64,000 bases of DNA. Origin: Escherichia coli (GTDB lineage: Bacteria > Pseudomonadota > Gammaproteobacteria > Enterobacterales > Enterobacteriaceae). The position numbers are program-made. The DNA lies in assembly GCF_045037415.1 (NCBI RefSeq), contig NZ_CP173438.1; one strand, 5' to 3'. This document shows, in pieces, positions 15,401-21,400 of this stretch. Within the stretch, counting starts at the first letter, position 1; each line of letters opens with the position of its first letter.

Positions 15401-18400
15401 GGTGTGATGGCACAGACCCGTGAGCATCTGGCGATTTTGCAGCTGACCGGTAACCCGATGCTGACAGTGGCGCTGACCAAAGCCGATCGCGTGGACGAAG
15501 CGCGTGTTGATGAGGTTGAACGCCAGGTAAAGGAGGTGCTGCGGGAATACGGTTTTGCTGAGGCAAAACTGTTTATCACCGCAGCAACCGAAGGTCGGGG
15601 AATTGATGCCCTGCGCGAGCATCTGCTTCAGTTACCAGAACGTGAACACGCCAGCCAACATAGTTTCCGCCTCGCGATCGACCGCGCATTTACCGTAAAA
15701 GGTGCCGGGCTGGTCGTCACCGGTACGGCGTTAAGCGGGGAAGTGAAAGTAGGCGATTCACTCTGGCTGACTGGTGTAAATAAACCGATGCGCGTGCGTG
15801 CGCTGCATGCGCAAAATCAGCCAACAGAAACTGCCCATGCCGGGCAGCGTATCGCGCTTAACATCGCGGGTGATGCGGAAAAAGAGCAGATTAACCGTGG
15901 CGACTGGCTGCTTGCCGATGTGCCGCCGGAGCCGTTCACACGGGTGATTGTCGAGCTTCAAACCCATACACCGCTGACCCAGTGGCAGCCGCTGCATATT
16001 CACCACGCCGCCAGCCACGTTACGGGACGTGTTTCGCTACTGGAAGATAACCTTGCCGAGCTGGTGTTCGACACGCCGCTGTGGCTGGCGGATAACGATC
16101 GCATAGTGCTGCGCGATATCTCGGCCCGCAACACGCTGGCGGGGGCGCGTGTGGTGATGCTTAACCCGCCGCGTCGCGGTAAGCGTAAGCCGGAATATCT
16201 GCAATGGCTGGCGTCTCTTGCACGGGCGCAGAGCGATGCCGATGCGTTATCTGTTCATCTGGAACGCGGCGCGGTTAACCTTGCGGATTTCGCCTGGGCA
16301 CGGCAGCTCAACGGCGAAGGGATGCGCGAACTGCTGCAACAGCCTGGCTATATTCAGGCTGGTTACAGCTTGTTGAATGCGCCAGTTGCCGCCCGCTGGC
16401 AGCGGAAAATTCTCGACACATTAGCGACTTATCATGAGCAACATCGCGATGAACCTGGTCCTGGGCGCGAACGTCTGCGACGTATGGCGTTGCCAATGGA
16501 AGATGAAGCGCTGGTACTGTTGCTGATTGAAAAGATGCGCGAAAGCGGCGACATCCACAGCCATCACGGCTGGCTGCATCTGCCGGATCATAAAGCGGGC
16601 TTCAGCGAAGAGCAGCAGGCCATCTGGCAAAAAGCAGAGCCGCTGTTTGGTGACGAGCCATGGTGGGTGCGTGACCTGGCAAAAGAGACGGGAACCGACG
16701 AGCAGGCAATGCGCCTGACGCTACGCCAGGCGGCCCAACAGGGGATAATTACTGCGATCGTCAAAGATCGTTATTACCGTAACGATCGGATTGTCGAATT
16801 TGCCAATATGATCCGCGATCTCGATCAGGAATGTGGTTCAACCTGCGCGGCGGATTTCCGCGATCGCTTAGGCGTAGGCCGCAAGCTGGCAATTCAGATT
16901 CTGGAATATTTTGACCGCATTGGCTTTACGCGTCGTCGTGGAAATGATCATTTATTGCGCGACGCATTATTATTTCCGGAAAAATAAGGAAATGATTAAT
17001 TCATAATAAATATGAATTAATACAAAATTTCTTATTAATGTTAAGAAGGCACGTTATTTGATGAATGTAACGTGCTTTTTATTAAAAATATTTTAATAAA
17101 CGGTAATATTGATCATATTTTCAAATGAAAATTCTCAGTAAGCTGCCCGCCCTTTTTTACACTTTCAGGAGTGTGTTATGGCAGCTTCAACCTTTTTTAT
17201 TCCTTCCGTGAATGTTATTGGTGCTGATTCATTGAATGATGCAATGAATATGATGGCAGATTATGGATTTACCCGTACCTTAATTGTCACCGACAATATG
17301 TTAACGAAATTGGGTATGGCGGGTGATGTGCAAAAAGCACTGGAAGAACGCAATATTTTTAGCGTTATTTATGATGGCACCCAACCTAATCCCACCACGG
17401 AAAACGTCGCTGCAGGTTTGAAATTACTTAAAGAAAATAATTGCGATAGCGTGATTTCCTTAGGCGGTGGTTCTCCACACGACTGCGCAAAAGGTATTGC
17501 GCTGGTTGCAGCCAACGGCGGTGACATCCGCGATTATGAAGGCGTTGACCGCTCTGCAAAACCGCAGCTGCCGATGATCGCCATCAACACCACGGCGGGT
17601 ACGGCCTCTGAAATGACCCGTTTTTGCATCATCACTGACGAAGCGCGTCACATCAAAATGGCGATTGTGGATAAACATGTCACTCCGCTGCTTTCTGTCA
17701 ATGACTCCTCTCTGATGATCGGTATGCCGAAGTCACTGACCGCCGCAACGGGTATGGATGCCTTAACGCACGCTATCGAAGCGTATGTTTCTATTGCCGC
17801 CACGCCGATCACTGACGCTTGTGCACTGAAAGCCGTGACCATGATTGCCGAAAACCTGCCGTTAGCCGTTGAAGATGGCAGTAATGCGAAAGCGCGTGAA
17901 GCAATGGCTTATGCCCAGTTCCTCGCCGGTATGGCGTTCAATAATGCTTCTCTGGGTTATGTTCATGCGATGGCGCACCAGCTGGGCGGTTTCTACAACC
18001 TGCCACACGGTGTATGTAACGCCGTTTTGCTGCCGCATGTTCAGGTATTCAACAGCAAAGTCGCCGCTGCACGTCTGCGTGATTGTGCCGCTGCAATGGG
18101 CGTGAACGTGACAGGTAAAAACGACGCGGAAGGTGCTGAAGCCTGCATTAACGCCATCCGTGAACTGGCGAAGAAAGTGGATATCCCGGCAGGCCTACGC
18201 GACCTGAACGTGAAAGAAGAAGATTTCGCGGTTCTGGCGACTAATGCCCTGAAAGATGCCTGCGGCTTTACTAACCCGATCCAGGCAACTCACGAAGAAA
18301 TTGTGGCGATTTATCGCGCAGCGATGTAATCATCATTCCCACAACGGCTGGCGAGTTGTCAGCCGCTTTTTCAACTATCTCAAAACTTGCTTTTTTTGAG

Positions 18401-21400
18401 ATAGTTTCTCTTTCCTGCTATACACTATCTCAATATTGCGCTTTTTTGAGATAAGCACATGGCTATCAAATCACCTCCCGGACTTATTCCTTTATCACAC
18501 TTATCGGGTGAGGAACTCCTGGCCCACCTGCGCTTTAACCGGGTTACCGATGAAAAAGGACGTTATCTGCCTTTTGATGAGTTGCAGTACCGCATCAAAA
18601 AAGGAGAAAACGTCGATGTGGCGTGGACGCTTACCCGTCTGGCGCGCAACGCGGCGATCCAACGAATTAATTATTGCAATGAAGCGGGTGAACAGGCCGG
18701 ATTCAACATTACCCCGGTGATTGCAGAAGCGTGCGAGCTTGTCGACAAACGTGCTACCGCGCTGGCGCTGAAAGATCAGACTGAACGGTTACGCGGGGCC
18801 GGAGCCGAGTTAAGCCAGTTACGCCTGGAAGAGCCGATCACCAGCTCCCAGCTGGAAGGTGCGAATACTACAACGCTGGTGGCGAGAAAAATGCTGGAAA
18901 CAGGGCGGTCGCCACGCACTGAAGACGAGCATATGATTGCGGGAAATGCCCGGCTGATGGCGGAAATTCCGCACTTACTCGCAGAACCGCTGACACCTGC
19001 GCTTATTCGCCAGTTACATGCCATTGGTATGGGTGGAATCAATGACGCGAAATATCGTCCGGGAGAATTTCGTGAAACAGATGATGTTGTGATCGCCGAC
19101 TATGATGGCAATATAGTGCATCAACCGCCCGCTGCGGCATTGTTACCGGAACGGCTGGAAAAAGTTTGCCAGTGGTTAAACAGCCATGAAGGGTATATTC
19201 ATCCGTTGGTCCGTGCCTGCATTCTGCATTTTATGCTGGCCCATGAACATCCGTTTCGGGATGGCAACGGGCGCACCAGTCGGGCGCTGTTTTACTGGTA
19301 TATGCTGAAATCGGGCTACGATGTCTTTAAATATATTTCCATCAGCCGTTTGCTTCATGCTGCACCGGTCAAATATGCCGCCAGCTACCAGTACACTGAA
19401 TCAGATGGTATGGATCTGACTTATTTCCTTGAATATCAGGCGGGTGTCATTAAACGTGCTCTGCAAAACTGGCAGCAGCATATCGATGAAATTACACAAC
19501 GAAGCGCAAAACTCGATAGTGTGCTGTTTAGCTCTGGTGTGCTTAAACGCCTGAATCCGCGCCAGGTAACGCTCCTGAATGTGATGCTCGCCAATCCGGG
19601 GAAAGAGTACACAGTTGCTGAAATTAGCGCGAGCTTGGGCGTCTCTGATAATACGGCTCGAGCTGATTTACGGACAATTGTTAAAGAAGGATTCGCGCAA
19701 GAGAAAAGAATTAATAACCAGCAAGCAGTGTACGTCGCACACTACCCGCTGTAGCTTTTGCCCGTAAATTCGTGATAGCCGTCGTAAAGCTGTTACCGAC
19801 TGGCGAAGATTTCGCCAGTCACGTCTACCCTTGTTATACCTCACACCGCAAGGAGACGATCATGACCAATAATCCCCCTTCAGCACAGATTAAGCCCGGC
19901 GAGTATGGTTTCCCCCTCAAATTAAAAGCCCGCTACGACAACTTTATCGGTGGCGAATGGGTAGCGCCTGCCGATGGCGAGTATTACCAGAACCTGACGC
20001 CGGTGACCGGGCAGCTACTGTGCGAAGTGGCGTCTTCGGGCAAACGAGACATCGATCTGGCGCTGGATGCTGCGCATAAAGTGAAAGATAAATGGGCGCA
20101 CACCTCGGTGCAGGATCGCGCGGCGATTCTGTTTAAGATTGCCGATCGAATGGAACAAAACCTTGAACTTTTAGCGACGGCAGAAACCTGGGATAACGGC
20201 AAACCCATTCGCGAAACCAGTGCTGCCGACGTGCCGCTGGCGATTGATCATTTTCGCTATTTCGCCTCGTGTATTCGGGCGCAGGAAGGTGGGATCAGTG
20301 AAGTGGATAGCGAAACCGTGGCCTATCATTTCCATGAACCGTTAGGCGTGGTGGGGCAGATTATCCCGTGGAACTTCCCGCTGCTGATGGCGAGCTGGAA
20401 AATGGCCCCCGCGCTGGCGGCGGGCAACTGTGTGGTGCTGAAACCCGCACGTCTTACTCCGCTTTCTGTACTGCTGCTAATGGAAATCGTCGGTGATTTA
20501 CTGCCGCCAGGGGTGGTGAACGTGGTCAATGGCGCAGGTGGGGAAATTGGCGAATATCTGGCGACCTCGAAACGCATCGCCAAAGTGGCGTTTACCGGCT
20601 CAACGGAAGTGGGCCAACAAATTATGCAATACGCCACGCAAAACATTATTCCGGTGACGCTGGAGCTGGGCGGCAAATCGCCAAATATCTTCTTTGCTGA
20701 TGTGATGGATGAAGAAGATGCCTTTTTCGATAAAGCGCTGGAAGGCTTTGCACTGTTTGCCTTTAACCAGGGCGAAGTTTGCACCTGTCCAAGCCGTGCT
20801 TTAGTGCAGGAGTCTATCTACGAACGCTTTATGGAACGCGCTATCCGCCGTGTCGAAAGCATTCGCAGCGGTAACCCGCTCGACAGCGTGACGCAAATGG
20901 GCGCGCAGGTTTCTTACGGGCAACTGGAAACCATCCTCAACTACATTGATATCGGTAAAAAAGAGGGCGCTGATGTGCTCACCGGCGGGCGACGTAAGCT
21001 GCTGGAAGGCGAACTGAAAGACGGCTACTACCTCGAACCGACGATTCTGTTTGGTCAGAACAATATGCGCGTGTTCCAGGAGGAGATTTTTGGCCCGGTG
21101 CTGGCGGTAACCACCTTCAAAACGATGGAAGAAGCGCTGGAGCTGGCGAACGATACGCAATATGGTCTGGGCGCGGGCGTCTGGAGCCGCAACGGTAATC
21201 TGGCCTATAAGATGGGGCGCGGCATTCAGGCAGGGCGCGTGTGGACCAACTGTTATCACGCTTACCCGGCACATGCGGCGTTTGGCGGCTACAAACAATC
21301 AGGCATTGGCCGTGAAACCCACAAAATGATGCTTGAGCATTACCAGCAAACCAAGTGCCTGCTGGTGAGCTACTCGGATAAACCGTTGGGGCTGTTCTGA

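Follow-up and report, generated by a model that had tools for sequence, protein, structure and literature searches.

Between yiaY and aldB, a 64,000-nucleotide stretch of the Escherichia coli genome (NCBI RefSeq assembly GCF_045037415.1, contig NZ_CP173438.1; below, the window) carries a gene for a 431-residue protein with a Fic domain, and two palindromes lie directly in front of it. What is this enzyme doing between its metabolic neighbors, and what are the palindromes for? A first reading of the sequence by itself (the original prediction) had proposed a self-inhibited AMP (adenosine monophosphate)-transferase in a strain-variable position, and had left the palindromes as either an operator or an insertion scar. 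We conclude, with a probability of roughly 0.7, that the locus is a self-contained cassette in which a class II Fic enzyme with a helix-turn-helix of the winged type (wHTH) at its C-terminus, of the same kind as SoFic, CccR and CbFic2, represses its own promoter through two operators. This conclusion draws on the motifs and the fold of the protein, on a presence/absence polymorphism and its polarity, on purifying selection, and on an operator and promoter architecture that is conserved across phyla and genomic contexts.

The gene, the two palindromes and the predicted promoter elements are arranged as follows:

18459..19754, plus strand: Fic-wHTH gene, 431 amino acids (aa), ATG start (RefSeq WP_000985737.1, 'Fic family protein')
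18376..18403, no strand: distal site O1, TATCTCAA-N12-TTGAGATA, within perfect 13-nt arms at 18373-18385 and 18394-18406
18426..18453, no strand: proximal site O2, TATCTCAA-N12-TTGAGATA, ending 5 bp before the ATG
18396..18401, plus strand: predicted -35 hexamer TTGAGA, within O1's right arm, with a geometry that is conserved in homologues
18416..18424, plus strand: predicted extended -10 element TGc-TATACA, 17 bp after the -35 hexamer and abutting O2

The palindromes had been noted as a pair 50 bp apart at the gene start, and they are recovered as a direct-repeat family, D2, at 18374-18403 and 18424-18453 (50 bp from start to start). Exactly two copies of the pattern are present in the window, even when 2 mismatches are allowed, compared with 0.00 expected from 100 shuffles. 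Within each site the half-site centers are 20 bp apart, that is, approximately 68 Å or two helical turns, and the 50-bp phasing of O1 and O2 corresponds to approximately five turns, which places both sites on one face of the DNA. Transcription is predicted from the sequence to start near 18431, inside O2, so that this site spans the predicted start and the 5' untranslated region. The sole Shine-Dalgarno-like element is a GAGA that lies 7 nt ahead of the ATG, in the right arm of O2.

This arrangement extends far beyond E. coli. In a set of 80 homologous loci (34–96% identity, one genome per species), a search for TCTCAA-N12-TTGAGA that tolerates 1 mismatch finds 47 sites in 29 kb of upstream sequence but only 11 in the remaining 592 kb, an enrichment of approximately 86-fold. 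The spacer is nearly always 12 bp long, the proximal site ends 2–10 bp before the start codon, and paired sites stand 49–52 bp apart in 22–23 loci. Sites precede homologues in Enterobacterales, Pseudomonas, Marinomonas, Alteromonadales and cyanobacteria; the taxa that bear the motif are Pseudescherichia, Photorhabdus, Marinomonas, Alcanivorax, Pseudoalteromonas, Glaciecola, several Pseudomonas and two Leptolyngbya cyanobacteria. Conservation also reaches beyond the search pattern (T-R before it and Y-A after it, each with more than 1 bit), giving a site consensus of T-R-TCTCAA-WW-N8-WTT-TTGAGA-Y-A. In 19 of 23 site pairs from other genomes, TTGAGA is followed at 16–19 bp by a -10-like hexamer that shares 4 or more of its 6 positions with TATAAT, compared with 14% of random positions, and TG precedes the hexamer in 8 of the pairs. 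As in CccR, then, a palindromic operator overlaps the gene's own promoter, here with two palindromes framing a conserved -35/-10 pair. Distant clades have variant half-sites (ACTCAA-N10-TTGAGT, CCTCAA-N12-TTGAGG, TTTCAA-N12-TTGAAA and CGCAA...TTGCG), which accompany different recognition helices in the protein (ENTARKYL or ANTARKYL versus S(D/Y)NTAxxxL), and one Pseudomonas clade retains a degenerate version of the site.

The operator also stays with the gene when the surroundings change. It is found in Pseudescherichia at a different chromosomal site, in Photorhabdus, and in front of homologues on an island resembling an integrative and conjugative element (ICE) in Salmonella and on a satellite-like prophage element in Klebsiella. 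The Salmonella homologue (70% identity; locus L101, 2987-4285) is surrounded by AcaB, DUF3158, DUF3577 and DUF2859 genes, whereas the Klebsiella homologue (49% identity; locus L103, 6001-7362) follows a DUF927 primase-like gene among Bro-N, AntA and Caudo_TAP genes. Plasmid-borne homologues exist too. Because the sites follow the gene through unrelated contexts, no factor other than the Fic-wHTH protein accompanies them in every case, and this constant companionship is the main argument for its wHTH as the binding domain. In view of this comparative evidence, the paired palindromes are very probably the gene's own operator.

Could the palindromes act in RNA instead, the first as a back-up terminator or insulator for read-through from yiaY and the second as a translational hairpin that hides the ribosome-binding site? 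Palindrome 1 does fold stably (-14.1 kcal/mol, z -6.7) and has a U-rich run behind it; the terminator scan flags it, and it could add to the termination of yiaY read-through. Palindrome 2 overlaps the GAGA ribosome-binding region. However, palindrome 2 is weak (-7.3 kcal/mol, z -1.9) and the transcript predicted from approximately 18431, with its 5' untranslated region, is unstructured. The sequence of the arms, beyond their ability to pair, is conserved from enterobacteria to cyanobacteria, the center of the N12 spacer carries neither information nor self-complementarity, and asymmetric arms such as TATCTC...GAGACA are common and go uncompensated. Together these features are the signature of a two-fold protein-binding site and not of an RNA stem. 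The phasing is fixed at 49–52 bp with the sites framing a promoter, sites also precede homologues that have no convergent upstream gene to terminate, and a search of 18200-20000 against Rfam gave no match at E<=1. We therefore regard a role as RNA hairpins as improbable.

The protein has the parts that an auto-repressing Fic enzyme would need:

19248..19283, plus strand: Fic catalytic motif HPFRDGNGRTSR, H264-PFRDGNGRTS-R275 (residues 264-275), read in the sequence
18843..18860, plus strand: class II inhibitory (alpha-inh) motif S129-S-Q-L-E133-G134, which fits (S/T)xxxE(G/N), read in the sequence
19551..19742, plus strand: C-terminal wHTH with the predicted recognition helix at residues 397-409 (Pfam helix-turn-helix (HTH) matches, homologues and AlphaFold2)
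18459..18758, plus strand: subfamily-specific N-terminal module, residues 1-100 (comparison with SoFic-type proteins, and profile)

Pfam places the Fic domain (PF02661) at residues 177-281 with an E-value of 1.7e-19. The catalytic motif HPFRDGNGRTSR conforms to the canonical AMPylation motif HxFx(D/E)GNGRxxR, and H264, P265, F266, D268, G269, N270, G271, R272 and R275 are invariant in 66 homologues with identities down to 35%. The same is true of S129, Q131, L132, E133 and G134 in the inhibitory motif, which falls within TSSQLEGA (residues 128-135), 130 residues before the catalytic histidine and at the end of a predicted helix (118-132). Class II Fic proteins are defined by an inhibitory motif of this kind, carried by a helix that precedes the Fic core in their own chain.

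An AlphaFold2 model built from the alignment of the 66 sequences (mean predicted local distance difference test (pLDDT) score 90, predicted template modeling score 0.85) has helix 118-132 ending with the inhibitory motif, then the Fic core, which a long helix (321-359) connects to a winged helix (367-427). The predicted elements of the latter are helices 367-378, 386-393 and 397-409 followed by strands 413-417 and 423-427, and N398-T399-A400 in the predicted recognition helix are near-invariant. Pfam HTH matches to this region (HTH_DeoR and others, residues 361-414) are below threshold in the protein itself, but HTH_DeoR, HTH_11 and HTH_20 are significant (E<=0.001) in 6, 4 and 2 of 15 homologues, respectively; Fic_N and SoFic-like_C give weak matches across the same 15. 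The top Foldseek matches in the PDB are 8CIL (CbFic2), 3ZCN/3EQX/3ZEC (SoFic), 4RGL (Dde_2494), 7CB8 (a Mycobacterium marinum Fic), 7XUX (CccR) and FICD, all at a probability of 1.00 and 17–23% identity with approximately 355 of 431 residues aligned. The family profile finds 8CIL at 2.9e-22 over residues 125-432 and aligns through the wHTH of both 8CIL and SoFic.

The proposed 431-aa open reading frame (ORF) with its Fic motif and TSSQLEGA is thus present as described, and the profile searches suggested for it bear out the Fic fold. Sequence and model together also support the self-inhibited AMP-transferase with a winged-helix tail, that is, a class II Fic enzyme whose AMP-transferase active site is probably inhibited by E133 of the same chain. 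By analogy with its relatives, the protein would be expected to AMPylate a target. A literature look-up by accession (WP_000985737.1) found no paper.

How does the protein compare with Fic systems that have been studied? It sits in one class with SoFic, EcSofic, CccR and CbFic2; it has the architecture of SoFic, CccR and CbFic2 and is an orthologue of none of them. CccR of Yersinia pseudotuberculosis represses its own promoter through AGATAATCAT-N26-ATGATAATCT at the -35/-10 region, using a C-terminal HTH; it AMPylates FtsZ, is an effector of the secretion system of type VI (T6SS) and alters the expression of other genes (PMC9755527). Like the protein here, CccR (7XUX) is a class II Fic protein in which the inhibitory motif is N-terminal and the HTH C-terminal. 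It functions as a dimer, as is proposed here; its palindromic boxes also lie at -35/-10, and its half-sites AGATA/TATCT resemble GAGATA/TATCTC. Unlike the protein here, it has 380 rather than 431 aa and lacks the N-terminal module, matches over the Fic core only (phmmer, 1.5e-11) at approximately 17–18% identity (Foldseek), and uses a single pair of 10-bp boxes with 26 bp between them instead of two 28-bp palindromes 50 bp apart. Its T6SS link has no counterpart at this locus.

SoFic (3EQX, 3ZCN; Shewanella oneidensis) and EcSofic (9VJC) share with our protein the order of N-terminal helix region, alpha-inh, Fic core and wHTH. SoFic AMPylates EF-Tu and binds, as a dimer, to the 100 bp immediately upstream of its gene, where no motif has been defined (bioRxiv 10.64898/2026.07.09.737422), and EcSofic is toxic and neutralized by AS1, a 47-aa protein encoded downstream (PMC12249575). 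The PADLOC model for SoFic matches strongly here, and the promoter-proximal binding is a further likeness; the identity, on the other hand, is approximately 18–19%, approximately 65 N-terminal residues are additional, an AS1-like gene was not found in the 107-bp gap downstream, and the paired palindromes contrast with a SoFic operator motif that has not been reported. CbFic2 of Coxiella burnetii (8CIL), a DNA-binding Fic-wHTH dimer, has this Fic and wHTH architecture in common with our protein and is its best profile and fold match among solved structures, but at 20% identity; it binds random DNA, its (de)AMPylation is stimulated by DNA, its reported substrate is histone H3 and an auto-operator has not been described for it. 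Class I FicT/FicA and Doc/Phd share the Fic/Doc fold, the restraint of a toxic potential by an inhibitory glutamate and auto-regulated expression; there, inhibitor and DNA-binding domain reside on a separate antitoxin, whereas here both are in one chain and a partner ORF is absent. Besides the architecture, auto-repression is most probably a property that the gene shares with these systems.

A simple mechanism can be put together from these parts. E133 on the inhibitory helix would restrain the AMP-transferase site H264...R275 of the same chain, and a dimer of the protein with widely spaced DNA-binding domains would bind each 28-bp palindrome. The half-site spacing of approximately 68 Å suits a dimer in which the wHTH domains are far apart, as in the dimers of SoFic, CbFic2 and CccR. 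Occupancy of O1 would cover the -35 hexamer TTGAGA and occupancy of O2 the transcription start and the ribosome-binding region, so that two bound dimers would occlude both and repress the gene's own transcription. Such autorepression could keep a potentially toxic enzyme low and buffered without a separate antitoxin gene. We infer both that the wHTH of the protein itself is the binding factor and that binding means repression. Release of the inhibition may, by analogy, lead to growth arrest or phage defense; the expectations of AMPylation, growth arrest and defense are modeled on CccR (FtsZ), SoFic (EF-Tu) and EcSofic (toxic, in a SoFic family that is reported as anti-phage). If the mechanism holds, the exact operator (TATCTCAA-N12-TTGAGATA in two copies with 50-bp phasing) and its promoter provide a model for the whole Fic-wHTH subfamily and extend the precedent of CccR auto-repression.

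Several results weigh against this interpretation. The NCBIfam equivalog model for SoFic (NF046030) gives 40.3 bits, far below its curated cut-off of 550, which does not support orthology to SoFic, and the identity to solved Fic-wHTH proteins is approximately 17–20% (Foldseek). The analogy with SoFic, CccR and EcSofic is consequently one of architecture and not of orthology. Approximately half of the 80 homologous loci have no strict match to the operator motif; many of these, but not all, have recognizable variants. The proposed promoter was not called by a sigma-70 promoter scan, its -10 element having an A at position 6; hence, the promoter model rests on conservation, and the promoter is a prediction only. 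CbFic2 binds DNA without clear sequence specificity and is stimulated by it (PMC10628234), so DNA binding in the Fic-wHTH class need not mean repression alone. Finally, deletion of a predicted, unspecified SoFIC from the B2 strain NILS69, and its over-expression in a heterologous host, produced no detectable phenotype with the tested phages (PMC12409345).

The last point also concerns the physiological role of the cassette. A SoFic-type defense role is plausible, and it is compatible with the operator model. Primarily, the cassette would then be a single-gene abortive-infection system, in which infection relieves the auto-inhibition, the auto-repression or both, and an essential host protein is AMPylated. 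SoFic has been reported as a defense system by Millman et al. (bioRxiv 10.1101/2022.05.11.491447), and the PADLOC SoFic model PDLC03963 matches residues 96-427 at 1.1e-43 (148 bits), with positions 30-351 of its 361 covered (89%). The toxicity of EcSofic, the homologues on plasmids and on the Salmonella and Klebsiella elements, and the strain-variable presence are all consistent with this. Against it, none of the tested proteins is an orthologue of this one, the gene has core metabolic neighbors in E. coli rather than a defense island around it, it has been inherited vertically since before the split from Escherichia albertii, and both the AS1-like gene downstream and a phenotype in the NILS69 study are missing. 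In phage genomes there are only distant relatives: matches lacked the N-terminal part and reached at most 36% identity and 71% coverage, with no close phage-borne relative among them. The exact operator pattern occurs in IMG/VR as 15 single sites, none of them paired or beside a Fic homologue, which by our rough estimate is close to chance level and uninformative. We consider defense as the primary role a possibility to be held tentatively. Defense-system finders probably count this gene as 'SoFic', although it is an orthologue of no tested SoFic, so SoFic census numbers for E. coli may derive from a non-orthologous protein.

The protein could also be mainly a transcription factor for other genes such as aldB, with the Fic domain as a sensor or regulatory domain. 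3EQX was deposited as a 'Fic domain containing transcriptional regulator', CccR alters the expression of other genes, and aldB is co-oriented with the Fic gene, 107 bp downstream, with no plus-strand terminator detected between the two by the terminator scan. Nevertheless, within the window the operator is found only at the gene's own promoter, the upstream region of aldB is the same in strains without the Fic gene, the neighbors of the homologues are unrelated, and the full, invariant catalytic motif argues for an active enzyme. We find this quite unlikely.

The N-terminal module sets the subfamily apart. Some 65 residues extend beyond the start of SoFic-type proteins, and the first 65–100 residues have no counterpart in the SoFic/CccR/CbFic2 group, yet they are modeled with a pLDDT above 90 and include residues that are invariant in the family (M1, P7, Y36, R45, W56, R63 and D96). 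Among 1.84 billion proteins, a profile of the module retrieved 261 cluster representatives only, with every match N-terminal and no new architectural context. The full-length proteins have 420–530 aa, and short matches look like truncated ORFs from short contigs. Hence, the module is private to this Fic subfamily. A more far-reaching idea is that the module and the double operator, conserved from enterobacteria to cyanobacteria, mark an ancient, distinct subfamily in which operator DNA, beyond serving repression, would gate the enzyme, as DNA does in CbFic2, making the cassette a sensor whose N-terminal module selects the target. If so, titration of the protein off its operator or onto invading phage or plasmid DNA would toggle it between silent repressor and active AMPylase, as would a copy-number change of a cassette that resides on a mobile element. 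We offer this as a speculative and rather unlikely extension.

How did the gene come to be present in some strains only? It had been suspected of being strain-variable, with yiaY and aldB taken to be adjacent in K-12, and both points are borne out: in MG1655 (K-12) yiaY adjoins aldB across a 164-bp spacer, and the Fic-positive allele is found in 1575 of 5426 complete E. coli genomes (29%, chromosomes only). The gene is full length (at least 80% in one piece) in 1572 of the 1575 carriers, which include ST131 (sequence type 131)-like and other B2 strains and O157:H7. The K-12-type 164-bp spacer allele accounts for 3279 genomes and an allele with a 200-bp spacer for another 576 (approximately 11%). 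Alignment against MG1655 and other genomes, which the original prediction had called for, defines the boundaries of the variable segment:

18382..19749, no strand: segment of 1368 bp that is absent from K-12-type genomes, junction ...AACTATCTC/TGTAA...

These boundaries reverse the implied polarity of insertion. At the K-12 junction (...CAACTATCTC/TGTAACCCTTGCCCG...), O1's left half survives together with the final 5 nt of the ORF, which read TGTAG in carriers. The 200-bp allele has the full O1 with 1 mismatch, the edge of O2 (part of a second half-site, GTTATCTC) and a K-12-type right junction; its orphan distal palindrome is almost intact, AACTATCTCAAAATTTGCGATTTTTGAGAGAGTT (locus L084, 3460-3510). 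The K-12 allele equals the 200-bp allele minus 36 bp between two ATCTC repeats. Because the empty sites hold pieces of the operator and of the ORF end, they are deletion products and not virgin insertion targets. In E. albertii the Fic gene also lies directly upstream of aldB, and between E. albertii and E. coli its synonymous divergence (dS 0.31) matches that of aldB (0.35), with a ratio of nonsynonymous to synonymous divergence (dN/dS) of 0.065; its presence at this site thus predates the separation of the two species. As read from these sequences, the Fic gene is ancestral at yiaY-aldB and under purifying selection, and was later deleted from approximately 70% of sequenced E. coli, K-12 included.

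As a consequence, it is extremely improbable that a mobile element brought the Fic gene between yiaY and aldB and left the palindromes as its ends or scars. The idea drew on the absence of the gene from most E. coli and on the homologues that reside on mobile elements elsewhere. Yet both palindromes lie 5' of the gene, with no matching repeat at the 3' end and no flanking terminal repeats or target duplication found around the variable segment; the Fic-less alleles retain pieces of O1 and the last bases of the ORF, as expected for a deletion; and in genomic contexts that are unrelated the motif keeps its distance from the start codon. Junction anatomy and the synteny and dS in E. albertii lead us to reject the insertion scar, and of the two explanations first offered for the palindromes it is the operator that stands, on strong comparative evidence.

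Because it is missing from K-12, the gene has escaped laboratory study, although it is intact and under strong purifying selection in approximately 29% of sequenced E. coli, B2 lineages of extraintestinal pathogenic E. coli and O157:H7 among them. The natural deletion alleles, including the 576 genomes with an orphan O1, are ready, isogenic-like comparisons. What is new here is modest: the conserved double operator with its promoter architecture, the private N-terminal module and the deletion history in E. coli. The gene is not a new kind, as Fic-wHTH auto-repressors and SoFic-like proteins are already known.

The cassette is closely bounded by its neighbors. The gene order in the window is selA, selB, yiaY, the Fic ORF and aldB, followed by a GH127 gene, a major facilitator superfamily (MFS) transporter and an AraC regulator, and strain SK1144 is 100% identical to the window over the query. 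The Fic ORF stops at 19754 and the aldB ATG is at 19862, which gives the 107-bp gap that had been estimated. On the left, the locus had been drawn from 18345, but this edge belongs to the neighbor:

18345..18371, plus strand: yiaY intrinsic terminator, hairpin CGGCTGGCGAGTTGTCAGCCG (18345-18365) followed by the T tract CTTTTTC (-14.2 kcal/mol, z -3.3)

K-12 has the same hairpin, which is outside the Fic cassette. Neither the 129 bp upstream of the Fic gene nor the 107 bp that follow it contain a plausible small partner ORF; all ORFs there overlap the Fic gene or the aldB leader. A two-gene toxin-antitoxin system of the class I FicT/FicA or the EcSofic/AS1 type was rejected, as its partner ORF was not found.

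The upstream region of aldB contains a perfect 10-bp inverted repeat of its own, GACTGGCGAA-gat-TTCGCCAGTC at 19798-19820. It is unchanged in K-12 and E. albertii and is hence a feature of aldB, separate from the Fic cassette; the deletion in K-12 ends immediately upstream of the conserved aldB leader that carries it. The dS of aldB between the window strain and K-12 (19862-21400 versus locus L001) is approximately 0.16, which seems high within E. coli and would fit an old haplotype divergence around the deletion.

Palindromic units of the repetitive extragenic palindrome/bacterial interspersed mosaic element (REP/BIME) type directly follow the aldB stop (21425-21584), with one unit at approximately 21425-21470 and an inverted pair at 21503-21533 and 21554-21584 (31 nt, 87% complementary). 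The region 3' of aldB (21577-23598 and beyond) is a second variable spot. In CP131_Sichuan, IS1 comes immediately after yiaY and glyS is next, the aldB region being gone, and in strain S1-CHI-01-A aldB and GH127 are separated by a hicAB toxin-antitoxin pair. In the window, the GH127, MFS transporter and AraC regulator genes occupy the position of yiaW/yiaV in K-12, and the GH127 gene is annotated as frameshifted in the identical strain SK1144.

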